A stretch of DNA of 64,000 nucleotides from Acidobacteriota bacterium (GCA_029781975.1 JAKOVQ010000016.1:530086-594085); one strand, 5' to 3'; shown: positions 4,042 to 63,706, counted from the first letter of the stretch. Made by a program: numbers and translations. The notes: generated by a model not told the origin, from the sequence alone.

Positions 4042-6861
4042 CTACTCGGTCCAGGGGACGACCGGGCCGCCCTGGACGGGGGCCGGGTAGGTGAGGTTCG
4101 TCAGCCACATCGGAAGGAGGTTCACGTAGAGGGGGCTGCCGATCACGCCGCTGACGCCGCCGGGAAGGCTCGACCAGGCCTGGATCCCGTCCGGCGCCGC
4201 GTCGCAGACGTAGCGGCGCGACGGCCCCGAGCCGAACGTGAAGTCGCTCGGCTTCGTCGCCCGGACCCTGTGGTTGGCGACGTCGACGGTCCCGACGCCG
4301 CCCGAGCGCGAGATCCCGGGGAGGCCGGGGACGCTGGGTGGGAAGGCCCCGCCGGCCGGCGGGACGCTGAAGGGGGAGCCGAGCGGGTGGGCGAAGGTGA
4401 TCCGGTGGAGCGTCCCCCACCGGTAGTCGTCGAGGTTCGTCGAATGGCCGAACGCGGGGGCGAAGGCGTCGCCCGCGAGGAGCGCGAGGGTGTCCGAGAG
4501 GCTCTGGAGGATGAAGTAGTCGCGCCGGTCCTCGGGAGCCTGGATGCCGCGGACGGCGAAGAAGTCGAGGCCGGACGCTCCGACGCCGTGGCTCGTCGGG
4601 AAGGTCTCGAGGAGGTGCCTCAGCGCCGGGAGGGTCCCGTTGTGGTCGTTCGACGGGATCGGGAGGTCGAAGGGCGCGAGCGTCCGGTCGATGACCGCGG
4701 AGGCGAAGACGCCCCGCCAGGTCGAGTAGACCGTCGCGGCGACGCTCGCCGCGGCCTGCGCGTCGGTGGGCTCGGTCCCCGCCGGCTTGCCGGGGTCCCA
4801 CCCGTTCGTCAGGCCGCTCGGCGTCGAGAAGTCCCACGTCCTGAGCCGGGCGACCGCGGCGGCGACGCCGGGGTCGGCGGCCAGCGCGGCCAGAGCGGGG
4901 TCCGCGCCGGCCGCCGACCCGCGGTCGAACGCCGCGAGGATGTACGGGACGAAGACCTGCGCGTCGAGGAGGACGTTGTCGGCCTGGATCGCCTTCATGT
5001 CGGCGAGCGAGAGCTTCCCCGCCGAGGCGATCTTCGCCTTGATCAGCTGCGTGATCCGCGCGCAGCGGAAGCCGTCGTAGCCGTAGTTCAGGTAGTAGAA
5101 CCCGCCCGTCGCGCGCCTCTTCGAGAGCGGGTTGTTCGTGAGGGTGACGCCGACCGGGTCGTTGTTCGCGTTCGCGAACCACCCCTGCGCCGGGTCGACG
5201 GCGTGCGGCCGCTCGTCGGGCGGGAGGATCTCGAACGGGAGGGCCTGGTTGGTGTAGACGTTCTTCCGCGGGAGCCACTCGTTGCCGCCCGAGCCGTCCC
5301 GGATGAACCAGGGCGGGAGGCCGTTCACCGTCCCCGCCTCGAGGTCCTCGCGCAGCGGCTGCTCGCCGCTCGTCAGGTACGCGATGCTCCCGGCGGAGTC
5401 GACGACGCCCCAGTTGAACGAGCCGACGGTGAGGTACGTCAGCCCCCGGCGGAAGTCGTCGAGGCTCTTCGCGGTGTCCCACGTCCGGAAGCCGTCGACC
5501 TCGCGCGTCGGGGAGAAGCCGGAGTACTGGAGGGTGAGCGCGGTGCCGTTCGCCAGGTCGAGCGCGATGATCGGCCCGAAGTTGCGGCGCGGGGAGAGGA
5601 GCGTGGCGGGGGGGATCGGCCCGCCGGCGGGGACGACGGAGAGGTCGTCGGGGACCCCGTTGCCGACGTTGTTCTGCCGGAAGACCTCCGGGACGGCGAC
5701 GAGCTGCTCGGGCTTGCCGTCGTGGAGGAGGGCGAAGCCGGCGGGCGACCCCGGGGACGGGACGACCGTCTCGAGGTAGACGTCGGTGACGTCGGTCGGG
5801 TTGTTGGTCGCGCCCCAGGCGACGGAGTCGGTGTTGCCGAGGAGGACGAACGGGACCCCGGCCGCTCCCATCCCGGCGGCGTCGATCGGACCGCCCCGGA
5901 GAGACATCGGGTACCACGTGGAGGGGGTCCCGAGCGAGAGGTGCGGGTCGCTCGCCAGGAGCGGGTGCCCGGTGGTGCTGTACCGGCCGCTCACGGCCCA
6001 CTCGTTCGAGCCGTGGTCCCGGTCGCGGTTCAGGGCCTCGAGGTAGTAGGGGGCGGCGGCCGCGCGATCGCGGTACTCCCGCAGGAGGTCGAGCGCGCCG
6101 CGCTCCCGGAGCGCGGTGAGAGCCGCGGCCGCCCCGGCCCCGAGCCGCGCGGAGCGACGCTGCCAGGCCGACGGGACGCGCCCGGCCGCGGCGGCGGCGC
6201 CGGAGGGCGGCAGGGTCGTCGTCGGGTCGAACGGCTGGGTCCTGACGAGGTCCTCGGCGAAGAGGGCCTCGCCGTCGAAGCCCGCGACCGCCCCCGTCGC
6301 CTCGTACGTCAGGAGGAGCGTCGTCCGGTCGATGTCCGAGTCGTCGAAGAACTGGCCGAGGAGGAAGAGGTTCGCGAAGGAGAGGCTGTCGACCGCCGTC
6401 CACGGCTGGAACTTCGTGATCTCGAGCGCCCCGTACTCGGGCGGGAGCGGGTGGCTCGAGACGTACGCGTTGACGCCGAGCGCGTAGGCGTCCATGGCCT
6501 CGCGCCCCTCCTTCGAGATCAGGCCGTAGGCGGTGCTGGCCGTCCGGCGGAGGCCGAGCGTCCGGAGGAGGACGTCGCTCGAGAGGGCGGCGGGGCCGAC
6601 GAGCTCGGCGAGCGTCCCGCTGGCCTGCCGCCTGAAGTAGTCCATCTGGAAGAGCCGGTCCTCGGCCTGGACCCAGCCGGTCAGGAAGTGGAGGTCCCAC
6701 TCCGTGAAGCCGAAGACCTGGGGGATGCCGTTGGCGTCCCGTGTGATGGTGCCGCCGATCCGCATCCCGGGAAGGCGGATCAGGTCCCCCTTCTCCGAGA
6801 CCTGCGCGGCCGCGGGAGCCGCGAGCGCGAGGACGACGGCCAGGACCAGGCTGCGACGCAT
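4042..6861 (-). CDS. penicillin amidase / acyl-homoserine-lactone acylase family Ntn-hydrolase (S45), secreted
   Basis: Start taken at internal ATG 6861 (MRRSLVLAVVLALAAPAAAQ signal peptide; GAGGAGGAGG SD 6 nt upstream); autoproteolytic nucleophile motif ...DHG|SNEWAVSGRYSTTGHPLLASDPHL; ~939 aa. The annotated 1060-aa ORF upstream extension (6862-7224) is not protein-like. Confidence 0.9.
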   Translation of the reverse strand: MRRSLVLAVVLALAAPAAAQVSEKGDLIRLPGMRIGGTITRDANGIPQVFGFTEWDLHFLTGWVQAEDRLFQMDYFRRQASGTLAELVGPAALSSDVLLRTLGLRRTASTAYGLISKEGREAMDAYALGVNAYVSSHPLPPEYGALEITKFQPWTAVDSLSFANLFLLGQFFDDSDIDRTTLLLTYEATGAVAGFDGEALFAEDLVRTQPFDPTTTLPPSGAAAAAGRVPSAWQRRSARLGAGAAAALTALRERGALDLLREYRDRAAAAPYYLEALNRDRDHGSNEWAVSGRYSTTGHPLLASDPHLSLGTPSTWYPMSLRGGPIDAAGMGAAGVPFVLLGNTDSVAWGATNNPTDVTDVYLETVVPSPGSPAGFALLHDGKPEQLVAVPEVFRQNNVGNGVPDDLSVVPAGGPIPPATLLSPRRNFGPIIALDLANGTALTLQYSGFSPTREVDGFRTWDTAKSLDDFRRGLTYLTVGSFNWGVVDSAGSIAYLTSGEQPLREDLEAGTVNGLPPWFIRDGSGGNEWLPRKNVYTNQALPFEILPPDERPHAVDPAQGWFANANNDPVGVTLTNNPLSKRRATGGFYYLNYGYDGFRCARITQLIKAKIASAGKLSLADMKAIQADNVLLDAQVFVPYILAAFDRGSAAGADPALAALAADPGVAAAVARLRTWDFSTPSGLTNGWDPGKPAGTEPTDAQAAASVAATVYSTWRGVFASAVIDRTLAPFDLPIPSNDHNGTLPALRHLLETFPTSHGVGASGLDFFAVRGIQAPEDRRDYFILQSLSDTLALLAGDAFAPAFGHSTNLDDYRWGTLHRITFAHPLGSPFSVPPAGGAFPPSVPGLPGISRSGGVGTVDVANHRVRATKPSDFTFGSGPSRRYVCDAAPDGIQAWSSLPGGVSGVIGSPLYVNLLPMWLTNLTYPAPVQGGPVVPWTE

Positions 6862-7424
6862 CGATGCCTCCTCCTCGCCGGAACGGAGGCGAGCCCTGCC
6901 CGCCGGCCGCACCGGGCGTTCGTGGGTGTGACGAGAACGGCCCCGACTATGCGAGCGGGCGAACCCGTGGTCAAGGACGGGCCGCGCGTTAGCGCGGTCC
7001 CGCCCCGAAACCCGCGACGCGGCGGAGCCACGGGACGACCGCCGCCGCGGCGTCGTCACGAGGCGGGCGTCGAGCGCGCCCCCCGCCCGGGGATCGGCGC
7101 CCGGCGCCGGGCGGAGGGTCAGCGGGAGGAAGCGGCGACGGTCCGTCCGCTCGGTGTCGTCGTCGCCCTGCACGAGCGTCAGGATGGTGCGTGACCCGTC
7201 GTCGTTCCGGCTGACGTAGACCACGCTGACCCCGAGCCGGGCGTCGAGGTAGGGGCGGAACCGCGGGACCGCTCCCCAGGGAATGGCGATCTCGTAGCGG
7301 GCCGCCCCGGCGCCTCGAGCGCGAACGCGAGGATGGCCCCCTCGTCGAGGACGGCGCCGCGGGCGCCGGACGCCAGGAGGACGGCACCGAAGGCCGCGAC
7401 TCGGAGAAGGGTCCTCGCTCTCAC
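6862..7424 (-). pseudogene. possible frameshifted small secreted-protein gene (or mis-sequenced G-run) between EmrB and the acylase
   Basis: ORF 7179..7424 begins with a good signal peptide (MRARTLLRVAAFGAVLLASGARG) but turns to junk after ~40 aa at a GGGGCGGCCCGC run (~7285); a -1 frame then reads as real protein (RYEIAIPWGAVPRFRPYLDARLGVSVVYVSRNDDGSRTILTLVQGDDDTERTD...) with no stop before the acylase ATG. Confidence 0.25.
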
Positions 7425-7488
7425 GCCCGGTCCCCCGCCCGGAGGGCCGAGGGATTCTAGGCTCCGGCGAGCGGCTCCTGCGACCCGG

Positions 7489-13674: not shown

Positions 13675-13736
13675 GGCGAGCGCCCCCCGTCGGGCCGTGG
13701 ACGGAGCCGCGGACGCCCGTACTAAACTCGCCGCGC

Positions 13737-15698
13737 TTGAGCCAAGACCCCAGCGGCTCCTCGCTCCCCGGCCCCGGCGAGCGAGGGTCGTCCGACTCCT
13801 CCACCGGTGTCACCAGGCACGCCCCCGGGCCTCCGCACGGGAAGTACCTGCTGTTCCTCTCCCTCGGCGCCCTCGGGGTCGTCTTCGGCGACATCGGGAC
13901 GAGCCCCCTCTACGCGCTCCGCGAGTGTTTCTGGGGGCCGCACGCCCTCCCGGTGACCGAGGCCAACGTCCTCGGGATCCTCTCCCTCATCTTCTGGAGC
14001 CTCGTCCTGGTCATCTCCGTGAAGTACCTCGCCTTCGTCCTCCGGGCGGACAACCGGGGGGAGGGCGGGATCCTGGTCCTGATGGCGCTCCTGAGGCCGA
14101 GCCCGAAGGAGCGGTCGCTCCGGACGATGACGCTCGTCGCGATCGGGCTCTTCGGGGCGGCGCTCCTCTACGGCGACGGCATCATCACCCCCGCCATCAC
14201 GGTCCTCTCCGCCGTCGAGGGGCTGGAGATCGTCACCCCGGCGTTCCGCCCGTACGTCGTCCCGCTGACGGTCGTCATCCTGATCGTCCTCTTCTTCTTC
14301 CAGAAGCACGGGACGGCGCGCGTCGGCGCGGTCTTCGGCCCGGTGATGCTCGTCTGGTTCGTGGTCCTCGCGGCGCTCGGCGTGACCCACATCTTCGCGG
14401 TCCCCCGCGTCCTCCTGGCGCTCAGCCCGCACCTCGGCGCCGCCTTCTTCCTCCGGAACGGCCTGCACGGCTTCCTCGTCCTCGGCTCGGTCTTCCTCGT
14501 CGTGACGGGCGGCGAGGCGCTGTACGCCGACATGGGGCACTTCGGGCGGCGGCCCATCCGCGCCACCTGGTTCGCCCTCGTCCTCCCCGCCCTGGTCCTG
14601 AACTACTTCGGCCAGGGGGCCCTCCTCGTCGCCCGCCCCGCGGCCGCCGAGAACCCCCTCTACCGGATGACGCCCTCCTGGGGGCTCGTCCCGATGGTCG
14701 TCCTGGCGACCGCGGCCTCGGTCATCGCGTCGCAGGCGGTCATCTCCGGCGCCTACTCCCTGACGCGGCAGGCGATCCAGCTCGGCTACATGCCGCGCCT
14801 GAAGATCGACCACACCTCGGCGCGGGAGATCGGCCAGATCTACCTCCCCACCATCAACTGGCTCCTGATGGTCCTCTGCATCTGGCTCGTCCTGGCCTTC
14901 GGCTCCTCGAGCCGGCTCGCGGCCGCCTACGGCGTGGCGGTGACCACGACGATGGTCATCACGACCGTCCTCCTCTTCGTCTACGCGCGCCAGGCCTGGA
15001 ACGTGAAGCTCGCGCCGGCCCTCCTGGGGGCCGGCGCGTTCCTGGTGGTGGACCTCGCCTTCTTCGGGGCCAACATCGTCAAGATCGGTCACGGCGGCTG
15101 GTTCCCGCTCGTGGTCGCCCTGGCCGTCTTCACCCTGATGACGACGTGGAAGCGGGGGAGGCGGATCCTCGCCGACCGCCTCCGCGAGGCGACGATGCCG
15201 GTCGACCTCTTCCTCACCGACATCGCCGCCCGCCACCCGCAGCGGGTGAAGGGGACGGCGGTCTACATGGACCGGATCCCGGAGGGGGTCCCGCCGGCGT
15301 GCCTGCACAACCTCAAGCACAACAAGGTCCTGCACGAGCGGATCGTCTTCCTGACGATCGTCACCGACGAGGTGCCGCTCGTCAGGCCGCGCGAGCGGGT
15401 CCAGTCGGAGAGCCTGGGGCACGGCGTCTGGCGGATGACGCTCCGCTACGGCTTCATGCAGGACCCCGACGTCCCCAAGGCGCTCGAGCGGGTGAAGCTC
15501 GACGGGATCCCGATCGAGCCGATGGCGACGACCTTCTTCCTGGGGCGCGAGTCGCTCATCGCGAGCGAGCGGCCCGGGATGGCGAAGTGGCGCGAGCACC
15601 TCTTCGCCTGGATGGCGCGGTCGGAGGGGCGTGCGACGGCCTTCTTCAACATCCCGCCGGGCCGCGTCGTCGAGCTCGGCCTGCAGGTCGAGCTCTGA
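13737..15698 (+). CDS. kup: KUP/HAK/KT-family potassium uptake transporter
   Basis: Real part of the 1251-aa ORF begins near [23 protein letters not shown] (Kup signature N-terminus) and continues with 12 TM helices plus cytoplasmic C-domain; start codon uncertain (no ATG/GTG in frame nearby; TTG at ~13737 proposed). Confidence 0.85.
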
Positions 15699-15702
15699 GG
15701 CG

Positions 15703-18392
<2,690 letters not shown>

Positions 18393-18396
<4 letters not shown>

Positions 18397-20624
18397 GGCT
18401 CGGGCGGCAGACGCGGCGGCTCGAGGCCGCGGGGCGCGCCTTCGACCTGGGGCGCGCCGCGAACGGCGTCGTGACGATCGCCGCCGCCGACGACCTCGCC
18501 TTCGCCGCCGCCCTCGGCTTCGCGCACGCCCTCGACCGCCCTCTCCAGCTCCTCCTCGTCCGCGCGATCGGCCAGGGGCGGCTGGCGGAGCTGGTCGACG
18601 ACACGGACGAGGCGCTCGCCGTCGACCTCTTCTTCCGCCACCTCGGCTTCGCGGCCGGCGCCCGGGCCGAGGCCGCCCGTCTCGCGGGCGCCGCGCCGGC
18701 TGCCGCCGAGGCGTGCCGCTGCTACGCCGCCGGCGTGAACGAGGGGCTCCGGCGCGGCGGCCTGCCGTGGGAGCTTCGCCTCGTCGGCTTCCGCGCCGAA
18801 GGCTGGGAGCCGGCGGACACGCTCCTGACGCTGAAGCTGATGTCGTTCGTCGGGCTCGCCCAGACGCAGCTCGACGCCGAGACGCTGATCGTCCAGGCGG
18901 TGAAGGAGGGCGTGGCGCTCGGCAAGCTCCGGGCGCTCTTCGCCCCGCACCTCGACTCCCTCACCGAGGAGCGGGCCGCGCTGCTGCGCTCCGTCCGCCT
19001 CGAGAAGCCGTTCCTTCCGGGCGGGGTCCGCTTCGACGGCCTCCTCGCGGGGCCCGGTACGGCCCTGCCGTCGCTCCACGCCAGCAACAACGTCGCCGTC
19101 GCCGCCGCGCGCTCGGCGACGGGCGGGGCGCTCGCGGCCTCCGACCCGCACCTCGAGGTAAACCGCCTGCCGGCCGTCTGGGCCGAGGTGGCCGCGCGCG
19201 TGGGGGGCGAGCCGCGGATCGGCGTCACCGTCCCGGGGGTCCCCGGTCTCGTCATGGGGAGGACGGGCCGGATCGCGGCGACCTTCACCTACGGCTTCAT
19301 GGACCAGGCCGACCTCTTCGTCGAGGAGGTGCGCGGCGGCGCCTGCCGGCGAGGCGACGGGTGGGAGCCGCTGGCCGCCCGGCGCGAGACGATCCTGAGG
19401 AAGAAGCACCCGCCCCTCGCGCTCTCGGCGTTCGAGACGGACGCCGGGACCCTCGAGACGCCGCTCAGGGCCGACCCGCCGCCGGACGGCCTCCACCTCG
19501 CGCGGGCCTTCGCCCTCGACGGGCGGGGCGGCGCGGAGACGCTGACGGCCCTCCTCGCCCTCTGGCGGGCGGGGGACGTCCCCGGGGCGCAACGCGCCCT
19601 CCACGACTGCGCCGTCTCGGCCAACTGGCTCCTCGCCGACTCGGGGGGACGGATCGGCTACCAGCAGACCGGCCTCCTCCCGCGGCGCGCCTCGGCGGAC
19701 CTCGCGCCCCTTCCCGCGTGGGAGCCGCGGAGCCGCTGGGACGGGTTCGTCCCCGGAGGCGAGCTGGCGTCGGTCCTCGACCCGCCCGACGGCCTCCTCG
19801 TCACCGCCAACGACGCCTGGAACCCGCCCGGCGGCCCCGCCGCCGTGACGCTCGACATGGGGGACGACCGCGCGTCGCGCATCCGGGCCCTCCTGGCGGG
19901 GAAGGCGAAGGTCTCCCCGGACGACCTGAAAGGGGTCCAGCGGGACCTCGTCTCCCGCCAGGCCCAGCGGCTCCGCCCGCTCTTCGCGCCGCACGTCCCC
20001 GCCGGGCCGCTGCGCGACCTCCTCCTCTCGTGGGACCTCTCCTACGACGCGGCCTCGCGCGGCGCCGTCCTCTTCGAGCGGATCTGGGCGGCGGTCCTGG
20101 CCGAGGTCTTCGGGGCGCGGACCTTCGGCGCGGACGCCTGGCGGACGCTGGTCGAGCGGACCAGCCTCGTCGGCTACTACTTCCGCCGGCTCGACGACGT
20201 CCTGGCGGACGGCGACGAGGAGCTCTGGTTCGGTCCGGAGGGGAGGACGGCCCTCCTCGCGCGCGTCGTGCCGGGCGCGCTGGAAGGGCTCGACGCGGCG
20301 AGCGTCCCGACCTGGGGCGAGACGCGCCGGGTCGTCATGGCGAACCTCCTCCTCGGCGGGAAGCTCCCGCGCTTCCTCGGCTTCGACCGCGAGATCGTCC
20401 TCGTCGGGAGCCGCGCGACGGTCGTCCAGGGGCAGGTCCTGTCGGCCGGCGGCCGGACGACGACCTTCGCGCCGTCGTGGCGGATGGTGGCCGACCTCTC
20501 CCGCGACGACGCCGAGACCGTCCTGGCGGGCGGCCCCTCCGACCGGCGCTTCTCCGGGTGGTACGCGACCGACCTCGCCCGGTGGCTCGGCTTCGCGTAC
20601 AAGACGGTCCGCCCGCCCGCCTGA
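18393..20624 (+). CDS. penicillin amidase / AHL-acylase family Ntn-hydrolase, no detectable signal peptide
   Basis: GTG overlapping GH63 stop (GTGA); real part of the 1210-aa composite ORF; nucleophile motif LHA|[24 protein letters not shown] at ~residue 229; ~744 aa; N-terminus [20 protein letters not shown]... lacks hydrophobic signal. Confidence 0.85.
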
Positions 20625-21977: not shown

Positions 21978-22035
21978 CCCCGGGGGGATGCCGGGTGGGG
22001 GCTTTTCTGATACCCTCCCCCGTCCGAATGAGCGC

Positions 22036-22112
22036 GGTGAGAGTAGCTCAGTCGGTAGAGCATCGGACTGTGGCTCCGACGGTCGCGGGTTCGAACCCCG
22101 TCTCTCACCCCA
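22036..22112 (+). tRNA. tRNA-His (anticodon GTG)
   Basis: Manual fold: G-1 + acceptor GTGAGAG/CTCTCAC, D-arm GCTC/GAGC, anticodon stem TCGGA/TCCGA with loop CTGTGGC (GTG), T-arm GCGGG-TTCGAAC-CCCGT, discriminator C pairing G-1 (His identity), CCA encoded. Confidence 0.9.
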
Positions 22113-22134
22113 CTTCACCGGCTCTTTCCCAGAT

Positions 22135-22212
22135 GCGCCCGTAGCTCAGCCCGGATAGAGCGTCAGACTCCGGATCTGAAGGTCCCGCGTTCGAATCGCG
22201 GCGGGCGCACCA
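22135..22212 (+). tRNA. tRNA-Arg (anticodon CCG)
   Basis: Acceptor GCGCCCG/CGGGCGC, D-arm GCTC-AGCCCGGATA-GAGC, anticodon stem TCAGA/TCTGA loop CTCCGGA (CCG), T-arm CCGCG-TTCGAAT-CGCGG, discriminator A, CCA encoded. Confidence 0.9.
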
Positions 22213-22470
22213 CCTCTCGACCGAAGGCCACCCCGCGGGGTGGCCTTTTTCTCGGGCCGCGGAGGGGCTCGGGGAACCCGGGCTCGGGTTCCCCGGGACG
22301 GGTCGCCGTCCGTCAGACGGAGGGGATGAAGGTCCCGCGTTCGAATCGCGGCGGGCGCACCACCTCTCGACCGAAGGCCACCCCGCGGGGTGGCCTTTTT
22401 CTCGGGCCGCGGAGGGGCTCGGGGAACCCGGGCGCGGGTTCCCCGGGACGGGTCGCCGTCCGTCAGACGG
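22177..22470 (+). repeat. tandem direct duplication (2 x ~144 bp, period 150 bp, 1 mismatch) comprising the 3' 36 nt of tRNA-Arg + its terminator + ~75 bp
   Basis: 22177-22320 vs 22327-22470 identical except t/g at 22283/22433; second copy carries a partial tRNA-Arg (TGAAGGTCCCGCGTTCGAATCGCGGCGGGCGCACCA). Confidence 0.9.
22226..22252 (+). terminator. rho-independent terminator after tRNA-Arg (second identical copy at 22376..22402)
   Basis: Perfect palindrome GGCCACCCCG/CGGGGTGGCC followed by TTTTTCTC; duplicated 150 bp downstream within the tandem repeat. Confidence 0.8.
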
Positions 22471-22533
22471 GTCCCGCAGAGGTTTGGGCCGCGGGACCCG
22501 GCGCAACTACGATGCGGCCTGCAGGAGGTCCCG

Positions 22534-23076
22534 ATGCGCCACGTCCTGACTCTCGCAGCCGCCGGTTTCCTGGTCCTGGCCCCGCTCCAGGCGGCCGAGA
22601 CCCCCAAGCCCCTCGCCGCCGGGGACCCGGCTCCCGCCTTCTCGCTCCCGGGGTCCGACGGGAAGACCCACAGCCTCTCCGACTTCCTCGGGAAGGAGGT
22701 CGTCGTCCTCGCCTGGTTCCCGAAGGCCTTCACCGGCGGGTGAACGCTGGAGTGCAAGTCGCTCCGTGAGAGCGGCGACGAGCTCCGGGGGTTCCAGGTG
22801 GCCTACTTCGCGGCGAGCGTCGACCCGGTCGACCTGATCACGAAGTTCGCGAAGTCCCTCGAGGCGGACTACCCGATGCTGGCCGACCCCGACGGGACGG
22901 TGGCAAGGGCCTACGGCGTCGTCGCGCCGGACCGGGCGCGCCCGCAGCGCTGGACGTTCTACATCGGAAAGGACGGCAAGCTCCTCTACGTCGACCGCGA
23001 CGTGAAGGTGGGGACGGCCGGGGCCGACGTGGCGAAGCGGCTCGCCGAGCTCGGGGTGGCAAAGCGGAAGGGCTGA
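22534..23076 (+). CDS. secreted Bcp/PrxQ-type peroxiredoxin with in-frame TGA at the peroxidatic-Cys position (candidate selenocysteine-containing peroxiredoxin; alternatively nonsense-mutated pseudogene)
   Basis: ATG 22534 with GGAGG 8 nt upstream; ORFs 22390..22743 and 22798..23076 are the same frame split only by TGA 22741-22743; the 180-aa product is a signal peptide plus full Bcp fold. FPKAFTGG-[TGA]-TLECKSLRE aligns with E. coli Bcp YPKAMTPG-C-TVQACGLRD (recalled from memory). Confidence 0.65.
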
Positions 23077-23082
23077 CGCCGT

Positions 23083-24129
23083 TCAGCGGCGGGGCGTGAG
23101 CTCCTCGGCGACCCAGCCGCGGACGAGCTCCAGGGCCTCCCGGTCGGGGACCTTCGTCCCGAGCGGCGGCATCTGCGAGGCGGGGCGCCGCGAGGCCATC
23201 CTGTAGACCAGGGCGCTCCCGTCCGGGTCGCCGGGGGCGACGCGCAGGCTCCCGTGCCCCGACGCACCCGGGATGAGCCATCCCCCCTCGACCCCGACCG
23301 TGGTGGCCCGCGCGGGAGGGACGCTCCCTTCGCGCGACCCGACCAGCTGCCGGAGGAGGAGGCCGGTCGTCCCCGCCGGGTTGTCGGCGTTGTGGCAGGC
23401 GCCGCAGTTGCCGGAGAGGTAGCCGAGGACGGCCCGCTCGCGCGGCGTCGCCGCGGGGATCCTCGGCGGGCGCGCGACCCACTCGGGCCGCGCGGGCGAC
23501 AGGAGGCCCCGCTCCTCGAGCGCCGCGAGGGTCACCGCCCCCGGCCGGAGAGTCTCGGCGTGCGGGGCCAGCGGGTCGCGGTCGTCGGAGAGCTGCAGGG
23601 CGGAGAAGCCGAGGACCTCGACGCGCGCGCTCTCGTGGCAGGCGCGGCAGTCGAGGCGGCCGGGAAGATCGTGGCGGAGACCCGGGGCGATCTCGGCGGC
23701 TCCGGCGACGCCGTCGACGGGCGCGAGGATTGCCGCGGTTCCCGCGTCGTTCCAGACGTAGGTGGCGAAGACCCAGTCGTTCGCCGTGGCGCGCCAGAGG
23801 AAGCGGGTCTCGACGCGCCGCCCGCCGAAGGCGAACTCCTTCCAGAGCTTCGTCCCGACCGGGAACTCCCATGCGTCGGGGTCCGAGACGTCGATCGCCG
23901 AGCCGGGGGGGAGGAAGATCCAGCGCGCCTTGGCGGCGCCGTCGGTCCAGAGCGGGTACTGGGGCTGGTAGAAGAGGACGGACGGGGCGAGGCGGAGCGT
24001 CGCCGGGTCGGCGTAGAGCCCGGTCTCGGCGAGCGTCGGCGGGGGCTCCGGCGGGGCGCTCCCCGCCCCCGCCGCGCCCAGGGCGAGGAGTCCGAGGAGA
24101 AGCGCGGCGGGGCGGAGGGGCGTCGGCAC
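23083..24129 (-). CDS. secreted di-heme c-type cytochrome family protein (two CXXCH motifs)
   Basis: 348 aa; signal peptide [25 protein letters not shown]; heme-binding motifs CRACHE and CGACHN; convergent with the peroxiredoxin gene, ends 6 nt from its stop. Confidence 0.8.
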
Positions 24130-24142
24130 CGGAGGCTCCCCG

Positions 24143-24709
24143 TCACTTCGCCGGAGCGGCCGGCTCGGGCGGGTCGACCGGCTGCGGGACGCGGTTCCTC
24201 ACGGCCGGGATCGTCCTGAGGTAGGCGTAGATCGCCTTCAGGTCGTCATCGGTCGCCTGGGAGATCCAGTAGACCGGCATCGGCGGGCGGACCGGGCGGC
24301 CGTGACCCATGTGGCGGCCCGTCCGGAAGGTCTCGAGGAAGGTCTTCTCCGTCCACTTGCCCAGGCCGGTCTCGGGGTCCGGGGTCAGGTTCGCGGTGAA
24401 GGTGATCCCCCAGGGCCCGGCGAAGGCGGTGTTCGTCCCGGTCCCCGACCAGACCCAGGCCCCGTCCCCGTGCGACGGGGCGGCGGGGACCCCGAACGAC
24501 TCGGGGTGGCCCGAGAGCATCCGGCCCATGTCGGGCTCGGGGCCCTTCGGTCCCATCTTCAGGGGGGTGTGGCAGTCGTTGCACGACATGATCCGCACCA
24601 GGTAGCCCCCGCGCTCCTCGGGAGACGCTCCGGGCGCCGGGGGGGCGGCGGAGGCCCCCGCTGACAGGGCGAGGAGGATCGGGAGGGTCAGGGTCGTCGT
24701 CGTTCTCAT
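24143..24709 (-). CDS. secreted mono-heme cytochrome c
   Basis: 188 aa; signal peptide MRTTTTLTLPILLALSAGASA; CNDCH heme motif; 13 nt upstream of the di-heme cytochrome gene (operon); AGGTGA RBS 5 nt before ATG. Confidence 0.85.
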   Translation of the reverse strand: MRTTTTLTLPILLALSAGASAAPPAPGASPEERGGYLVRIMSCNDCHTPLKMGPKGPEPDMGRMLSGHPESFGVPAAPSHGDGAWVWSGTGTNTAFAGPWGITFTANLTPDPETGLGKWTEKTFLETFRTGRHMGHGRPVRPPMPVYWISQATDDDLKAIYAYLRTIPAVRNRVPQPVDPPEPAAPAK

Positions 24710-24794
24710 CGCGTCACCTCGTGGCTCCTTCGACGCGTTGATACGGACGACGTTTCGCCCCTCTTCCTAAGGGGCGCCTACGCTCTCCCTAAGA

Positions 24795-24818
24795 GTTGCC
24801 TAAGCGCCGCCGGTGCGG
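24795..24818 (-). terminator. GC-rich hairpin downstream of malic-enzyme gene (candidate terminator, no T-tract)
   Basis: GCGGGCGCC-GGCGAC-GGCGCCCGC, 9-bp stem, 35 nt past the malic enzyme stop on the minus strand. Confidence 0.3.
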
Positions 24819-24852
24819 GCGCCGGCGACGGCGCCCGCACGGATTCCGACCG

Positions 24853-26649
24853 TCAGCGGCGGAGGAGGACCTCCTCCTCCAGGCGCGCGCCGACCCCGTC
24901 GATCGCGCGCTGCTGCCGCCGGACCTCGGCCTCGCCCCGCGGCTCGTACCGGATGGGGAGGTACTCGGGGAACCACATCGACCGCCGGACCGTCTCCTCG
25001 AGGTTGGCCAGGACCCCCGCGTCCGCGTGCCCCTCGGCCACGGCGCGCCGGACGACGGCGCAGGCGACGGCGTGGGAGCAGTCGCGGATCCGCGAGAGCT
25101 GCGGGTAGACGGCGTGCTCGGCGAGGTCGTCCGGGGTGACGCACGCCGCGAGCGCCTTGGCCGCGTCGAGGAACATCCCGTCGCTGACGTGGCGGGCCCG
25201 CGAGACGCAGGCGCCGAGGCCGACCCCGGGGAAGATGAAGGAGTTGTTGCACTGCCCGATCCGGTAGGTCGTCCCTCCGAGGGTCACCGGCGCGAACGGG
25301 CTCCCGGTCGCCACGATCGCCCGGCCGTCGCTCCAGGCGAGGGCGTCGGCGGCCGTGCACTCGGTCTTCGACGTCGGGTTCGAGAGCGGGAAGATCAGGG
25401 GCCTTTCGTTGAGCTTCGCCATCAGCCGGACGACGGCCTCGGAGAAGGTCCCCGGCGCCGCCGAGACGCCGACGAGGATCGTGGGGCGCGCGTTCGCGAC
25501 GGTCTCCTCGAGGGAGATCCGCGACCCGTCCCGGCACGTCCAGCCGGCGACCTCCTCGGGGTCGCGCGCGTAGAGCGCCTTGAAGTCCTCGAGCGCGGGG
25601 CGGTCCCGCGTCACGAGGCCCTTCGTGTCGACGGTGTAGACGCGCCGCCGCGCCTCCTCGGGCGTCAGCCCGTCCTCGACGAGCGCCGAGACGAAGAGGG
25701 CCGCGATGCCGTGGGTCGAGGCCCCCGCCCCGGCGAAGACGAGCCGCTGGTCCCGCATCGCGTGGCCGGTCATCCTCATCGCCCCGTAGATCCCCGCGAG
25801 GACGACGGCGGCGGTCCCCTGGATGTCGTCGTTGAACGTCGGCAGGGTGTGGCGGAAGCGGTCGAGCTGCTTGATCGCGTTCCCCTTCAGGAAGTCCTCC
25901 CACTGGAAGAGGACGTTGGGGTAGACCCTCCGGACGGCGGAGACGAACCGGTCGATGAAGTCCTGGTACTCCTGCCCGCGGATCCGCTCGTGCCGGAGCC
26001 CCAGGTAGAGCGGGTCCTTCAGCCTCTCCTCGTTGTCCGTCCCGACGTCGAGGGTGACGGGGAGGGTGGAGTAAGGGGAGATGCCCGCGCAGAGCGTGTA
26101 GAGGCAGAGCTTGCCGATGGGGATCCCCATCCCCCCGGCCCCCTGGTCGCCGAGGCCGAGGATCCGCTCGCCGTCGGTGACGACCATCACCGAGGGGTCG
26201 GTCGTGTGGTAGTTCCGGAGGACCCTCTCGATGTCGTTCCGCTGGTCGTAGCCGACGTAGAGGCCGCGGCCCCGGCGGTAGATGTGCGAGAACTTCTGAC
26301 AGGCCTCGCCGACCACGGGCGTGTAGACGACCGGCATCATCTCGTCGATCCGCTCGAGGCAGATCCGGTAGAAGAGGGTCTCGTTCCGGTCCTGGAGGCT
26401 CGTCATGTAGACGAACTTCTCGAGCGGCGTCGGCTTGGCGACGAAGTTCTCGTAGACGCGCTCGAGCTGCTGCTCGATGGTGCAGACGGCCGGCGGGAGG
26501 AGTCCGTGGAGGTCGAGCTCGTCCCGCTCGCGCGTGGTGAAGGCGCTCCCCTTGTTGGTGAAGGGATCCAGCAGCAGGGCCTTCCCCTTGACGGGGGTCG
26601 AGATGTATCGCTGCCATGTGGACGGGTCGACCTTGATCGAGAAGCTCAT
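24853..26649 (-). CDS. NAD(P)-dependent malic enzyme (large, MaeA/SfcA-type)
   Basis: 598 aa; hallmark blocks FTTRERDELDLHGLLPP, VYTPVVGEACQ, GLGDQGAGGMGIPIGKLCLYT, FNDDIQGTAAV, GAGASTHGIA. Confidence 0.95.
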   Translation of the reverse strand: MSFSIKVDPSTWQRYISTPVKGKALLLDPFTNKGSAFTTRERDELDLHGLLPPAVCTIEQQLERVYENFVAKPTPLEKFVYMTSLQDRNETLFYRICLERIDEMMPVVYTPVVGEACQKFSHIYRRGRGLYVGYDQRNDIERVLRNYHTTDPSVMVVTDGERILGLGDQGAGGMGIPIGKLCLYTLCAGISPYSTLPVTLDVGTDNEERLKDPLYLGLRHERIRGQEYQDFIDRFVSAVRRVYPNVLFQWEDFLKGNAIKQLDRFRHTLPTFNDDIQGTAAVVLAGIYGAMRMTGHAMRDQRLVFAGAGASTHGIAALFVSALVEDGLTPEEARRRVYTVDTKGLVTRDRPALEDFKALYARDPEEVAGWTCRDGSRISLEETVANARPTILVGVSAAPGTFSEAVVRLMAKLNERPLIFPLSNPTSKTECTAADALAWSDGRAIVATGSPFAPVTLGGTTYRIGQCNNSFIFPGVGLGACVSRARHVSDGMFLDAAKALAACVTPDDLAEHAVYPQLSRIRDCSHAVACAVVRRAVAEGHADAGVLANLEETVRRSMWFPEYLPIRYEPRGEAEVRRQQRAIDGVGARLEEEVLLRR

Positions 26650-32987: not shown

Positions 32988-33893
32988 TCAGCGCGTCCCG
33001 CGCCCGGTGAGGTCGAGCGCCACGCGCGCGAAGAGGCCGGGACGGAGCCGGCCGTCGCGGTTCTCGAAGAGGGCCTCGACGATGAAGGTCCGGCTCGCGG
33101 GGTCGATCGCCGGGACGACGACCGACACCTTTCCGGAGAACGTCTCGCCGGGGTAGGGGTCGACCTGGGCACGGACCGGGGCTCCGGCGGCCGCGGCGCC
33201 GACGTAGCGCTCCGGGACGCGGAAGCGGAGCTTCAAGGGCGCGGTCTGGACGACGACGAAGGCCACCGTCCCCTCGCTCAGCCGCTCGCCGACGTCGACG
33301 CGCCTCTCGAGGACGACGCCGTCGATCGGTGCCGCCAGGACGGCGTCGGCGAGCCGCTGGCGGGCCAGGTCGAGGGAGGCCTTCGCCCCCTGCTGCGCGG
33401 CGCGGGCCCCGTCGTAGGCGGCCTGCGACCGGTCGAAGGCGGCCTGGGCCACCGACTCGCGTCCGACGAGCTCCTTCTTCCGGGCGAAGTCCCGCTCCGC
33501 CTCGGCGAAGGCGGCCGCGGCCCGGGCGGCCTCGGCCTCGGCGCGCGCGACGTCGAGCTTCAGGTAGTCGGTCTCCAGGTCGAGGAGCGGCTGGCCCTTC
33601 GCGACGCGCGCCCCCTCGTCCACGAGGATCCGGGCGACGCGCCCCGTCACCTTCGAGACGAGCTCGGAGCGGACGGGGGGGACGAACTCGCCGGTGGCGT
33701 CGAGGACGTCCGGCGCGGACGAGGCCTTCGCCTGCGGGGCGGCCACGCTCCTCTCGAGCGCCTTCACGTCGTCCGGAAGCGGGGCCTTCGGGTCGGCCTT
33801 CTTCTCGGCGACGGCCGTGGGGCGGGCGCAGCCGGCGAGGGCGAGGCCGAGGGCCAGGGCGGGAGCGAGGGCCGAGAGGGCTCGGACGTTCAT
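32988..33893 (-). CDS. RND efflux periplasmic adaptor (membrane fusion) lipoprotein
   Basis: ATG 33893 (MNVRALSALAPALALGLALAGC lipobox) with AGGAGA RBS; start ATG overlaps OMF stop (ATGA); coiled coil + beta-barrel/MP domains. Confidence 0.9.
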   Translation of the reverse strand: MNVRALSALAPALALGLALAGCARPTAVAEKKADPKAPLPDDVKALERSVAAPQAKASSAPDVLDATGEFVPPVRSELVSKVTGRVARILVDEGARVAKGQPLLDLETDYLKLDVARAEAEAARAAAAFAEAERDFARKKELVGRESVAQAAFDRSQAAYDGARAAQQGAKASLDLARQRLADAVLAAPIDGVVLERRVDVGERLSEGTVAFVVVQTAPLKLRFRVPERYVGAAAAGAPVRAQVDPYPGETFSGKVSVVVPAIDPASRTFIVEALFENRDGRLRPGLFARVALDLTGRGTR

Positions 33894-50171: not shown

Positions 50172-51047
50172 CTACCGCACGGCCGGGCGCGGCAGGAGCT
50201 TCTTCTCCACCTTCACGAGGACCGTGTACTCGGGGTCGACCAACTCCGTGACCGGCGCCCGCGCGGCCTGCGAGACGAACTGGTAGGCGTCCATCGCTCC
50301 CTCGACCGCCGTCCCGATGATCTCCCCGTCCCCCATCGCGTAGTGCCCGTCCCCGAACGACAGGAGCGCCCCCGGCACCCTCACCCCGAGGTAGACCGTG
50401 TTCCCGGCCCGCAACTCGGGACAGTCCATGTTCCCGCCGAAGTCGAACGGGACGATGGTGGAGCGAGCCTCTCCCCCCGCCGGTGCCACGCCGAGGCACC
50501 CGAGAAAGGGCGCCAGCGGCAGCTCCCACCGCTGCTTCCCGTCCCCCGACGTCGTCGCGACGACTCCCTTCGCCTTGTCTACCTCGTAGAACCAGACCGT
50601 CTCCGGCAGGTCGCCCGCCAGCATCGCCGTCCGGTCGGTCGGGTTGAGCGCGCCGAATCCGGGGAACGACGACGAGAGCCCGTGATCCCGGGCGGGCGCG
50701 AGCTTCAGGATCCGGATCGCCAGCGTGTCCCCAGGCTCGGCCCCTTCCACGAAGAACGGCCCCGTCTGCGGGTTGTCGTGCCCCGGCGCGACCACCTTCG
50801 ACGGCAGCTGCCCCTGCCTCGTCACCGCCCCGTCGAAGCAGTCCTCCGTCCAGGTGACGATCCGCGTCCCGGGCCTGATCCGCGCGACCGGCGCGTTCCC
50901 GCCGAACGTGTAGGTCAGCTGCTCGTGCTTCGGCACCCAGCGGAGGACGAGGGGCTCCTCGCCGTGCAAGACCGCCGTGGCGAGGAGCAAGGAGAAGACT
51001 CCAGGCACAACCTGCCTCCACCGTTGGACCCTCGAGATGGTCTTCAT
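50172..51047 (-). CDS. acetamidase/formamidase (FmdA_AmdA) family amidohydrolase, with signal peptide
   Basis: 291 aa; N-terminal VFSLLLATAVLHG hydrophobic segment; FmdA-type conserved blocks (PGDTLAIRIL, VPFDFGGNMDC, GDGHYAMGDGE). Confidence 0.88.
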   Translation of the reverse strand: MKTISRVQRWRQVVPGVFSLLLATAVLHGEEPLVLRWVPKHEQLTYTFGGNAPVARIRPGTRIVTWTEDCFDGAVTRQGQLPSKVVAPGHDNPQTGPFFVEGAEPGDTLAIRILKLAPARDHGLSSSFPGFGALNPTDRTAMLAGDLPETVWFYEVDKAKGVVATTSGDGKQRWELPLAPFLGCLGVAPAGGEARSTIVPFDFGGNMDCPELRAGNTVYLGVRVPGALLSFGDGHYAMGDGEIIGTAVEGAMDAYQFVSQAARAPVTELVDPEYTVLVKVEKKLLPRPAVR

Positions 51048-51426
51048 GAGTCACAACTCTGACGGAACGACCGGAACGACCCTCCGGGTTCCTGGTCCGC
51101 CGTACACCCAGAGGCGCAAAGCACCTCGCCCCGGTCTCTCGCGCCCGGAGGGCGCGAGGGCGGGCGGCGGATGCCCCCGCGCGAGTCCGTCCGAGCACGG
51201 GCCGGGACCCGCTCGCCCGCCGGCGCGGCCCCGGAGGAAAAGGCGGGCCTGCTGTCCGACGAGCGGAGCGAGGAGTACAGGCCCGCCCCGGAGGGGACGC
51301 GCCGCCGGGCGCCAGCGGGTGGCCCGCGCGCAGCGGACCGCGTGGGGGCGTCCGTCGCCCGCCCCCCGGGCTCGCACGGATCTTTCCGGCCCGAAACGGA
51401 TACGATCCCCGTTCCGGAGGATCCCG

Positions 51427-53250
51427 ATGCAGAAACGAACGGCCCCCGTCGTTCTCGTCGCCCTCGCCGTCCTCGCCTTCGTCGCGCTTCCTCTCGCGAC
51501 GCTCCCCGCTTCCGCCGCTCCCCCGACAGTCGAGGAGGCGAAGGCGTGGGTCGCGAAGGCCGAGGAGAGGTACCTCGCGCTCAGCATCGACACGGAGCGG
51601 GCCAACTGGGTCCAGGCGAACTTCATCACCGACGACACGGAGGCCATCGCCGCCAACGCGGGGGAGCGGCGCGCCCGCGCGGTCGCCGAGATGGCCCAGG
51701 AGGCGACCCGCTTCGACGGCCTCGCGCTCCCCGAGGACGTCGCGCGCAAGCTGAAGCTCCTCAAGCTCTCGCTCACCCTCGCCGCCCCCGCCGACCCGAA
51801 GAAGAGCGAGGAGCTCGCCCGGATCGTCGCCGGGATGGAGGGGACCTACGGCAAGGGGAAGTGGTGCCCGTCCGGCCCCGAGAGCTGCATGGACCTCGAG
51901 ACGATCTCCAGGAAGCTCGCCACGAGCCGCGACCCGAAGGAGCTCCAGGCCCTCTGGCTCGGGTGGCACTCCATCGCGCCGCCGATGAAGGCCGACTTCG
52001 TGAGGTACGTCGCCCTCGGCAACGAGGGGGCGAAGGAGCTCGGCTTCGCCGACACCGGCGCGCTCTGGCGGTCGAAGTACGACATGCCGCCCGACCGGTA
52101 CGGCAGGGAGCTCGACCGGCTCTGGGAGCAGGTGAAGCCGCTCTACGTCTCGCTCCACGCCTACGTCCGCTGGAAGCTGCGCGAGGTGTACGGCAAGGAC
52201 GTCGTCCCCGAGAAGGGGCCGATCCCGGCGCACCTCCTCGGGAACATGTGGGCGCAGACGTGGGGCTACGTCTACCCGCTCGTCGCCCCGAAGGAGACGG
52301 ATCCGGGCTACGACCTGACGGCGATCCTGAAGGAGCGGAAGTTCGACGAGCGGAAGATGGTGCGGACCGGCGAGGCCTTCTTCACCTCGCTCGGCTTCGC
52401 GCCCCTCCCGAAGACGTTCTGGGAGCGGTCGCTCTTCGCCCGGCCGAGGGACCGGGACGTCGTCTGCCACGCGAGCGCCTGGGACGTCGACTGGAAGGAC
52501 GACCTGCGCCTCAAGATGTGCATCGAGATCAACGCGGAGGACTTCGCGACGGTCCACCACGAGCTCGGGCACAACTTCTACCAGCGCGCCTACTCCGACC
52601 AGCCCCCCCTCTTCCGCGACAGCGCCAACGACGGCTTCCACGAGGCGATCGGCGACACCATCGCCCTCTCGATCACCCCCGACTACCTTGTGAAGATCGG
52701 CCTCCTCGACGAGGTCCCGCCGCCGTCGAAGGACATCGGCTACCTCCTGAACATGGCGCTCGACAAGATCGCCTTCCTCCCCTTCGGCCTCCTCATCGAC
52801 AAGTGGCGCTGGGAGGTCTTCTCGGGGCAGGTGACGCCCGACCACTACAACCAGGCGTGGTGGGACCTCAAGCTGAAGTACCAGGGGGTCGCCCCGCCCG
52901 TCCCGCGGACCGAGGCCGACTTCGACCCGGGCGCGAAGTACCACGTCGCCGCCAACGTCCCCTACTCGCGCTACTACCTCGCCGCCATCCTCCAGTTCCA
53001 GCTCGACCGGGCCCTCGCGAAGACGGCCGGCTGCACCCAGCCCCTCCACCGCTGCTCGATCTACGGCAACAAGGAGGCCGGGGCGAAGCTGATGAAGATG
53101 CTCGAGATGGGGCAGAGCAAGCCGTGGCCCGACGCCCTCCAGGCGGTCACGGGCCAGCGGCAGATGGATGCCACGGCCATCCTCGAGTACTTCGCTCCGC
53201 TCCAGAAGTGGCTCGACGAGCAGAACAAGGGGAAGCCGGTCGGCTGGTGA
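51427..53250 (+). CDS. M2-family peptidyl-dipeptidase (angiotensin-converting-enzyme-like), secreted
   Basis: ATG 51427; signal peptide MQKRTAPVVLVALAVLAFVALPLATLPASAA; zincin motif HHELGHNFYQ + downstream EAIGD (Glu ligand); ~607 aa. Confidence 0.9.
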   Translation: MQKRTAPVVLVALAVLAFVALPLATLPASAAPPTVEEAKAWVAKAEERYLALSIDTERANWVQANFITDDTEAIAANAGERRARAVAEMAQEATRFDGLALPEDVARKLKLLKLSLTLAAPADPKKSEELARIVAGMEGTYGKGKWCPSGPESCMDLETISRKLATSRDPKELQALWLGWHSIAPPMKADFVRYVALGNEGAKELGFADTGALWRSKYDMPPDRYGRELDRLWEQVKPLYVSLHAYVRWKLREVYGKDVVPEKGPIPAHLLGNMWAQTWGYVYPLVAPKETDPGYDLTAILKERKFDERKMVRTGEAFFTSLGFAPLPKTFWERSLFARPRDRDVVCHASAWDVDWKDDLRLKMCIEINAEDFATVHHELGHNFYQRAYSDQPPLFRDSANDGFHEAIGDTIALSITPDYLVKIGLLDEVPPPSKDIGYLLNMALDKIAFLPFGLLIDKWRWEVFSGQVTPDHYNQAWWDLKLKYQGVAPPVPRTEADFDPGAKYHVAANVPYSRYYLAAILQFQLDRALAKTAGCTQPLHRCSIYGNKEAGAKLMKMLEMGQSKPWPDALQAVTGQRQMDATAILEYFAPLQKWLDEQNKGKPVGW

Positions 53251-63300: not shown

Positions 63301-63642
63301 GGGGCCGCGCCGCAGCTCCTCGCCGACGCCCGGGCCCTCGAGCTGCGGCTCGCGGACCTCGACGTCGCGCTGAACGGCGACCGCGTGATCGCGGCGATCC
63401 AGGAGCCGGTCTCGCCCGGGATCGTGGAGCGGGTCCGGACCATCGTGAGCGGACACTGGCAGAGCACCTCCGCCCCGACGGCCACCCAGAGGCGCGACTA
63501 CGACGTCGCGGCCGCGCAGTTCGGGAAGGCGCTGGCGACGCTGAAGGGGATCGGCGCGGAGCTGACGGCGCTCGAGGGGAAGGCCGAGGCGGCCGGGGCG
63601 CCCTGGACGCCGGGGCGGATCCCCGACTGGAAGCCGGAGTAG
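60316..63642 (+). CDS. secreted BNR/Asp-box repeat protein (sortilin/VPS10-like or glycosidase-like beta-propeller)
   Basis: ATG 60316 overlapping POP stop (ATGA), GGAGGA RBS; signal peptide MTQTPRFRSLLVPALAASLALCAQLSAA; >=9 Asp-box repeats S/TxDxGxxW; 1108 aa; upstream 587 codons of composite 1695-aa ORF are antisense junk. Confidence 0.88.
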   Translation: MTQTPRFRSLLVPALAASLALCAQLSAAPAKGGEKPAAPEKKELLSSKTLAGLAFRGIGPALTSGRIVDIAVRPDRPKTWYVASASGGVWMTETAGTSFTPVFDAEGSYSIGCVALDPTNPLVVWVGTGENNGQRSVSYGDGVYRSLDGGKSWENMGLKASEHVGKIVVDPKDGKTVYVAAQGPLWADGGDRGLYKTTDGGKSWKKVLDVSPRTGVSDLWMDPRNPDVLLAAAWQRRRHVWTLIDGGPESAVYKSTDAGATWRKLEKGLPKGDLGRIGLAISPADPDVVYAIVEASDKKAAGTYRSTDGGESWERRADYTPGGPQYYQELIPDPKRSDRVYSMDVFLQVTEDGGKSWHDLGEKWKHVDNHALWVDPADTDHLLNGNDGGLYESWDRGISWAFKANLPVTQFYRVAVDESKPFYFVYGGTQDNFSLGGPSRTRTVNGIRNDDWFVTQGGDGFVSQVDPTNPDIVYAESQYAGLVRFDRRTGETIDIQPQPGPDDPPLRWNWDSPLIISPHSPARLYFAAQRLFRSDDRGDTWKPVSPDLTAGIDRNALKVMGRVWSVDAVAKNTSTSFYGNIVSLAESPVKEGLLYVGTDDGLVQVSEDGGGAWRKDASFPGVPERSYVSDLFASPHAEGTVFAAFDNHKMGDFKPYLLKSTDRGRSWTSVAGDLPTRGTVYTVAEDPVKPDLLFAGTEFGLFVTVDGGKKWVQMKGGLPTIAVRDIAIQKREGDLVLATFGRGFYVLDDYSPLRQVTPAALEKEGFLFPVKAAWMYVPSAPLGLPGKAFQGEAYFMAPNPPFGAVFTYYLKDEPKTRKKARHEAEKELEKKGADTPYPPFDALRAEAREEEPKVLLTVTDETGAVVRRLTGPAKAGFNRVAWDLRYPAPNPTSLKPPSTDNPFRQPPEGPLAMPGAYKVELALAADGKTTPLGEAQPFQAVVLGTASLPPADRAALLAFEQKTARLYRAVLGSVQAAREAKDRVDHLQKALLDTPGAAPQLLADARALELRLADLDVALNGDRVIAAIQEPVSPGIVERVRTIVSGHWQSTSAPTATQRRDYDVAAAQFGKALATLKGIGAELTALEGKAEAAGAPWTPGRIPDWKPE

Positions 63643-63670
63643 AGGCCCGAGGGCGGTCCGAGCGGAGACG

Positions 63671-63706
63671 AAAAAGGGGGGGAGGGCTGGACGGCGCTCC
63701 CCCGGG
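63671..63706 (-). terminator. rho-independent terminator on the minus strand
   Basis: Minus strand reads GGGGGAG-CGCCGTCCAGCC-CTCCCCC followed by TTTTT (plus-strand AAAAA 63671-63675). Confidence 0.4.

Follow-up and report, generated by a model that had tools for sequence, protein, structure and literature searches.

A likely selenocysteine codon at the peroxidatic position of a predicted exported PrxQ/BCP-like peroxiredoxin from an Acidobacteriota bacterium

Peroxiredoxins that use selenocysteine (Sec) for catalysis, and the SECIS hairpins that bacteria place within the open reading frame itself, are by now textbook matter in the selenoprotein field. The Bcp/PrxQ-type thiol peroxidases are generally cytoplasmic, and COG1225 is the COG of these Bcp-type enzymes. 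Under COG1225 and PF00578, the peroxiredoxins (Prx) with a TxxU motif form an established bacterial selenoprotein family, catalogued by Zhang, Gladyshev and co-workers (PMC1088965, PMC1794560, PMC2398784, PMC5029168), one that has been known as such since 2001-2005. A survey of the Sargasso Sea listed 43 Prx selenoproteins under COG1225, the GOS survey 253, and a 2016 survey of genomes 91 from 78 organisms; repeated Cys-to-Sec conversions have been inferred for the family. PrxU of Eubacterium acidaminophilum is cited as the experimentally characterised Sec-containing peroxiredoxin (Sohling et al., 2001).

Here we describe a locus within a 64,000-nucleotide stretch of Acidobacteriota DNA (referred to below, at its full length, as the window) that with near certainty is a genuine gene and encodes an exported enzyme for destroying peroxides, whose catalytic residue would be Sec, with a conserved hairpin after the in-frame UGA. 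Its motif, F-T-G-G-U, places the encoded protein within the definition of the TxxU Prx family (PMC1794560, PMC1088965, PMC2398784).

Gene frame, active site and predicted export

The gene for this PrxQ/BCP-like peroxiredoxin runs from 22534 to 23076 on the plus strand as a single frame of 180 codons plus a stop (TGA, 23074-23076), opening with the ATG at 22534. A Shine-Dalgarno sequence, AGGAGG (22523-22528, plus strand), can be read directly five nucleotides 5' of the ATG. The sole internal TGA, codon 70, lies at 22741-22743, where the peptide reads ...AWFPKAFTGG*TLECKSLRESG.... Public gene calls divide the locus into two products of 69 and 92 amino acids, which the initial annotation had held to be one frame interrupted by TGA; the reading of the frame bears this out, and the two short "genes" are to be merged into one selenoprotein.

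The G+C content of the 64-kb window is 72.9%, and 3' of the internal TGA the gene has a GC3 of 0.95, similar to that of real genes in the window. TGA terminates 24 of 31 confident window genes, the peroxiredoxin gene among them. UGA is therefore an ordinary stop here and is not reassigned genome-wide, so that codon 70, if it is read as sense, must be recoded locally. When the whole window was scanned for in-frame TGA codons with coding-like GC3 on both flanks, no other selenoprotein candidate emerged, and the only other hit besides the peroxiredoxin gene was an ordinary gene junction at 32988-32990. A consensus scan of positions 22000-23300 found no promoter or terminator.

With Cys substituted for the stop, the product matches Pfam AhpC-TSA at E = 8e-30 over profile positions 2-123 of 124, and its PF00578 score of 103.7 bits, against a cutoff of 26, makes it a member of the peroxiredoxin (AhpC/TSA) family. 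The closest solved relatives are PrxQ/BCP-type peroxiredoxins, and in an alignment to the PrxQ/BCP structure 5epf the TGA coincides with the peroxidatic Cys of PxxxTxxC, exactly where the initial annotation had put it. Upstream of it, Pro63 through Thr67 (P-K-A-F-T, 22720-22734, plus strand) make up the first part of the PxxxTxxU motif, as the 5epf alignment also indicates; downstream, the conserved active-site arginine, Arg139, is encoded at 22948-22950 (plus strand), 3' of the UGA, and is followed by W140 and T141. P63, T67, U70 and R139 are all present in the window gene, and in an alignment of 27 sequences each is invariant among the homologs apart from the U/C column itself.

Invariant in the same alignment is Cys74 (TGC, 22753-22755, plus strand), a candidate resolving Cys. 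The claim that a resolving Cys is retained four residues after the peroxidatic position stands in so far as there is an invariant Cys at +4 (UxxxC); the canonical Bcp position, however, is +5, and in the 5epf alignment C74 falls one residue ahead of the canonical resolving Cys. The window protein and its whole family thus have U/C-x-x-x-C, not the CxxxxC of two-Cys Bcp/PrxQ enzymes. The invariant C74 is likely the resolving residue and would then give a selenenylsulfide.

Ahead of the peroxiredoxin fold, residues 1-20 (22534-22593, plus strand) form a predicted Sec-type signal peptide, MRHVLTLAAAGFLVLAPLQA, which ends before the residues AE. Its features are a basic N-terminus, uncharged residues at positions 4-17, and L-Q-A ahead of the predicted cleavage site, the same site, between PLQA and AE, that had been proposed at the outset; the region contains neither a twin-arginine motif nor a lipobox Cys. 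An N-terminal extension is found across the family, poorly conserved in the 27-sequence alignment and fast-evolving in near relatives. Since the signal peptide is of the typical Sec type, with no twin-arginine motif, the product is probably periplasmic, and the N-terminal extensions elsewhere in the family point to the same location for the mature protein.

The surroundings of the gene have features of their own. Just upstream, 150 nt are directly repeated in tandem (22161-22310 and 22311-22460), in copies that are 95% identical and each hold the 3' half of a tRNA-Arg(CCG) and a perfect palindrome, AAGGCCACCCCGCGGGGTGGCCTT, then Ts; the second copy is accordingly a partial tRNA pseudo-copy. 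A Logan contig ends inside this repeat. A remnant att site, duplication by slippage and an effect of the assembly are all conceivable origins of the repeat. Convergent with the peroxiredoxin gene, on the minus strand, are genes for two secreted CxxCH proteins, one of 348 amino acids with two haem-binding motifs (23083-24129) and one of 188 amino acids with a single motif (24143-24709). Neither of these c-type cytochrome-like genes has a Pfam match at E <= 1e-5, and conserved synteny between them and the peroxiredoxin was considered and rejected, as they are adjacent only in close relatives; no functional link is claimed. Farther away, the window encodes a full-length homolog of Peptidase_M2, the angiotensin-converting-enzyme family (50914-53250, plus strand, E = 9e-229), which is to our knowledge uncommon in bacteria, and two paralogs of the penicillin-amidase family at most 16 kb apart (4042-7488, minus strand, and about 18400-20624, plus strand). 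Long ORFs on both strands at 60037-64000 and 13697-15767 have no Pfam match at E <= 1e-5.

Sec/Cys alternation and the hairpin after the UGA

A protein search returned 4898 homologs, the best of which are about 180 amino acids long, are extended by a hydrophobic stretch at the N-terminus, and contain AWFPKAFTGG-C-TxECKS as their motif. A scan of ortholog DNA, taking one genome per species, returned 80 loci. Among these 80 gene copies from species-representative genomes the peroxidatic codon is TGA in 38 and TGC or TGT in 42, a TGA share that is a biased estimate, because one of the two search patterns demanded Cys or Trp at this position and relatives of the query had an advantage in the ranking. 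Three JGI metagenome contigs also have TGA there, and over all gene copies compared, 42 with TGA stand against 44 with TGC/TGT in the same alignment column. The initial annotation had left it to the orthologs whether TGA or TGC belongs at this codon: both are found, and the codons with which TGA alternates are strictly those for Cys.

The TGA carriers are spread over Acidobacteriota (Thermoanaerobaculia, Vicinamibacterales, Terriglobia), Verrucomicrobiota and Planctomycetota, and complete chromosomes (OZ241896.1 and OZ244838.1) are among them. The nearest ortholog overall, from a Thermoanaerobaculia MAG and 77% identical, has TGA, and the frame downstream of the codon is of normal length (106-112 codons) in 38 of 40 TGA genes. 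On a neighbour-joining tree the distribution of Sec and Cys states requires at least nine switches. Two features by which selenoproteins are recognized are found here: a Sec/Cys pair at a conserved catalytic Cys, and UGA-containing homologs in other organisms with conserved downstream sequence.

Several individual loci in this collection call for comment. In two of them (L001, 809-811, P0005; L003, 825-827, P0009) the in-frame TGA has been rendered as Trp by JGI gene calls, with the result that database proteins show a spurious W at the catalytic position; re-annotation of the kind proposed above is due for these calls and for dozens of the MAGs seen. In a Vicinamibacterales MAG (L057), two paralogs follow one another on one strand, the leading one with TGC (Cys, at 2483) and the next with TGA (Sec, at 3208) as its peroxidatic codon, so that both forms occur side by side in one genome. 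In two further Sec orthologs (L040, Sec codon at 3193, and L008, at 3130) the frame runs on for 423 and 621 codons, respectively, past the Sec codon, not the usual ~110, and these long frames may be fusions to downstream domains or the outcome of a lost stop codon. The closest Cys-form ortholog (L004, GCA_964453825.1) is 74% identical to the window protein, is sister to a Sec gene (L006), and has a peroxidatic codon one base away from the TGA of the window. At 1818-1860 of this Cys ortholog the SECIS stem persists with one G-U wobble, its loop being CGCGA, not CGUGA; the gene gives the impression of having gone from Sec to Cys recently, with its SECIS in decay.

Two SECIS-like hairpins had been reported immediately 3' of the UGA. 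Both exist in the window sequence, and the one at 22758-22776 (plus strand) is conserved and co-varies. It is a stem of 7 bp, pairing 22758-22764 (GUCGCUC) with 22770-22776 (GAGCGGC) around the loop CGUGA (22765-22769), that starts 15 nt past the UGA, has its apical loop 21 nt from the UGA, and has an MFE of -11.0 kcal/mol. The bacterial SECIS model describes a loop of 3-9 nt with a G in its first two positions, usually followed by G or U, an upper stem of 4-16 bp, a UGA-to-loop distance of 16-37 nt, and an MFE of -7.5 kcal/mol or lower (PMC13188914). With 5 nt, CGU, 7 bp, 21 nt and -11.0 kcal/mol, the window element lies within all of these bounds, in favour of this hairpin. On the window sequence alone, the folds are only modestly better than those of shuffled sequences (z = -2.0 for 26 nt, z = -2.7 for 50 nt). 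The support beyond chance is comparative, as the TGA recurs in 42 copies and the hairpin at 22758-22776 co-varies.

All seven pairs are formed in 36 of 41 Sec genes versus 2 of 41 Cys genes, and the mean local MFE is -10.3 kcal/mol in the former and -6.2 kcal/mol in the latter (p = 1e-6). Conservation and covariation of the hairpin thus go with the codon, being confined to the TGA forms, as one of the checks originally proposed had envisaged. In the 41 Sec sequences the apical loop is CGUGN 37 times and CGGGN four times. Pairs were counted over 39 distinct Sec sequences, on a structure that we ourselves had named: 94.9% of the cells are paired, and two-sided changes occur at four of the seven pairs, in 16 cells. 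Sliding the 3' arm by one to three columns, as a control, leaves 30-75% paired. The covariation score was matched by none of 500 shuffles, a control whose significance is overstated because the sequences are related to one another. Run on the Sec alignment, RNAalifold gave as its consensus not the hairpin but a weak and different structure at -0.57 kcal/mol, and support is for this reason taken from the pair counting. As read from these sequences, the hairpin at 22758-22776 is the SECIS element, and the only one of the two reported.

Some of the compensatory change is synonymous on both sides of the stem, TCG>TCA (Ser) being matched by AGC>AGT (Ser), and this is not explicable by selection at the level of the protein. 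Elsewhere the compensation couples amino acids, CUC>UUC (Leu>Phe) accompanying AGC>AAC (Ser>Asn). The locus is, in this respect, a clean case of RNA structure shaping protein, with Leu/Phe coupled to Ser/Asn via base pairing, and across the clade the SECIS may constrain the protein sequence to SLRESG or SFRxNG.

Four orthologs (L046, L078, L081 and L083) have a variant of the element some 17-39 nt past the TGA. Only three or four of the seven pairs can be made in the standard register; the 5' arm, GUCGCUG, is unchanged and CAGCGAC, the 3' arm, lies 3 nt farther downstream, which, as read off the sequences, keeps a 7-bp stem and gives an 8-nt loop beginning CGUGA. The peptide encoded in these genes is SLRDSS or SLRENS.

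Two other structures were considered as functional parts and rejected. The first of the reported hairpins (22749-22765) has 75% of its cells paired over the 39 distinct Sec orthologs and does no better than shuffles, 207 of 500 of which match it. A possible lower stem around the SECIS hairpin (22747-22788, plus strand, pairing 22747-22753 with 22782-22788) appears in the minimum-energy fold of this one sequence, where the 50-nt stretch that includes it has an MFE of -24.4 kcal/mol (z = -2.7); across the orthologs only 51.6% of its cells are paired, and it is therefore not a conserved part.

Decoding of UGA-70 and its alternatives

Three ENA metagenome assemblies contain relatives at 90-92% protein identity in which the TGA is kept and the hairpin is identical; their signal-peptide regions are strongly diverged. 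Over the 110 codons past the TGA, comparison with these three near relatives gives 9-10.5 synonymous and 2-4.5 nonsynonymous differences, for a pN/pS of 0.07-0.15, from which it follows that the downstream part is translated in frame. Among near relatives, then, purifying selection on the part 3' of the TGA is strong. Against distant orthologs, pN/pS is only 0.4-0.6 on both sides of the UGA, in what is a very GC-rich gene, and this comparison, unlike that with the near relatives, carries little information.

This selection, together with the Sec/Cys alternation, the retained TGA, and a co-varying hairpin that agrees with the SECIS model, supports the selenocysteine reading advanced in the initial annotation, and we consider it very likely, going by sequence evidence, that UGA-70 is decoded as Sec in a 180-residue exported peroxiredoxin of the PrxQ/BCP type. 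The codon would be read by Sec-tRNA(Sec) brought by SelB, which the 7-bp hairpin with its CGUGA loop would recruit inside the coding sequence with the ribosome positioned at UGA-70; the last UGA of the gene, which has no such hairpin, would act as a stop. The signal peptide would be cleaved upon export by the Sec translocon. Once in the periplasm, the enzyme would reduce peroxides with its U70 selenolate, which T67 and R139 would activate and which would be converted to the selenenic acid. C74 would probably resolve the latter to the selenenylsulfide, and this in turn would be reduced by a periplasmic thiol-disulfide reductant. The locus in this way points to an exported selenoenzyme for the removal of peroxide, and it makes the use of selenium likely in this high-GC organism, for whose gene the closest ortholog comes from a MAG of the Thermoanaerobaculia.

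The alternative that survives best, itself improbable, is that the gene is a relic, in a family that uses Sec and an organism whose own Sec machinery is gone, with no translation past codon 69. Loss of the Sec trait and conversion of Sec to Cys are documented as frequent in bacteria, and selA, selB, selD and tRNA-Sec are all absent from the 64-kb window: tRNA-His and tRNA-Arg were the sole tRNAs that ARAGORN and Rfam detected on it, and Pfam scans of about 40 window ORFs found no SelA, SelB or SelD. Sec genes, however, are commonly dispersed over a genome, so that nothing can be concluded from not finding them in 64 kb, on a contig at least 622,836 bp long; ARAGORN found no nearby tRNA-Sec at 39 Sec loci, nor at the Cys locus L004. 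A relic would, moreover, have to account for a perfect SECIS (7/7 pairs, CGUGA loop), an intact downstream frame with its GC3 of 0.95, and purifying selection on that frame among near relatives.

A nonsense mutation of TGC to TGA, leaving a pseudogene or a truncated product of 69 residues, is more improbable still. The initial annotation had itself cautioned that the change is of a single base; the closest Cys ortholog, L004, differs at the codon by that base only, and the locus is publicly called as two short genes. Yet the same TGA is present in 42 copies from three phyla (38 of the 80 species-representative copies), nearly all with a full-length downstream frame. It is retained in near relatives, for which pN/pS over 110 downstream codons is 0.07-0.15, and the hairpin is specific to TGA forms and co-varies with them.

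We regard as similarly far-fetched the proposal that UGA-70 is decoded as something other than Sec, whether as Trp or Gly by a reassigned code or by near-cognate read-through. The JGI translations of two orthologs do place Trp there, but the TGA that ends 24 of the 31 window genes identifies the code as standard, the alternation is with Cys codons only, and a hairpin of the SECIS type accompanies the TGA. Given the mechanism of PxxxTxxC enzymes, a peroxiredoxin with Trp or Gly as its peroxidatic residue would be inactive. Finally, that the TGA is a sequencing or assembly error is scarcely credible, since nothing specific speaks for it beyond the 150-nt repeat just upstream, within which the Logan contig breaks, and that contig, made by a different assembler (run SRR15686344), is 100% identical over 22441-25836 (3396 nt), TGA included, as the TGA is also found in the three other assemblies of related strains; the possibility of such an error, which had been flagged for checking, can be laid aside.

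Comparison with known systems

Sec decoding of UGA-70 would place the protein closest to the TxxU Prx family, with which it shares the AhpC/TSA fold, a PxxxTxxU motif whose peroxidatic residue is Sec, Cys homologs that are widespread, repeated switching between Sec and Cys, and an in-ORF bacterial SECIS with a G in its small apical loop. The surveyed members of that family come mainly from Deltaproteobacteria, Clostridia and marine metagenomes, whereas the hosts here are Acidobacteriota, Verrucomicrobiota and Planctomycetota. The window clade further differs, as judged from sequence features, in having a signal peptide, by which its members would be exported, and an invariant Cys at +4 (UxxxC), a contrast drawn with the family as surveyed.

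PrxU (NCBIfam NF040737) likewise has its peroxidatic Cys replaced by Sec, but is of another peroxiredoxin subfamily. Against the PrxU model, whose curated cutoff is 270 bits, the window protein reaches 44.2 bits; that model spans 233 positions as opposed to 180 residues. The best structure and curated-model matches are to E. coli Bcp and PrxQ-type thiol peroxidases (NF006960; PDB 5epf, 3drn), which have the same active-site motif and a similar size, but use Cys, not Sec, and have their resolving Cys at +5 (CxxxxC) where the window protein has C74 at +4. The score against NF006960 is 74.3 bits, below the equivalog cutoff of 140, and the window protein is for that reason not an ortholog of Bcp; nor, on the model scores, is it one of PrxU. 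No NCBIfam model reaches its curated cutoff on this protein.

The RNA element can be set beside the fdhF-type SECIS of E. coli and the bSECISearch consensus. Here, too, an in-ORF hairpin just after the UGA presents a small loop with G and then U, at a spacing within 16-37 nt. As compared with the fdhF type, the window element lacks a bulged U, its stem being a simple helix of 7 bp, and its primary sequence is family-specific; in the variant that four orthologs have, the loop is 8 nt long and the 3' arm lies 3 nt farther on.

Because Sec-peroxiredoxins have long been known and are abundant, the novelty of the locus is modest, and no new class of system is opened by it; what is new is one further member of the family, in an exported UxxxC clade for which no curated model scores above cutoff. 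A limited literature search found no report of selenocysteine or Sec-peroxiredoxins in Thermoanaerobaculia, or of this exported UxxxC clade, which is weak evidence given its extent. We offer tentatively, as a proposal that falls a little short of an even chance, that these genes represent a distinct clade of exported, periplasmic PrxQ-like UxxxC enzymes with a SECIS of their own, common among the Acidobacteriota, Verrucomicrobiota and Planctomycetota of soil and fresh water, lacking a curated model and systematically mis-annotated, in forms that may include two short ORFs or an active-site Trp. If this is so, selenium-dependent defence against peroxide in the periplasm would be far more widespread in those phyla than selenoproteome catalogues show.
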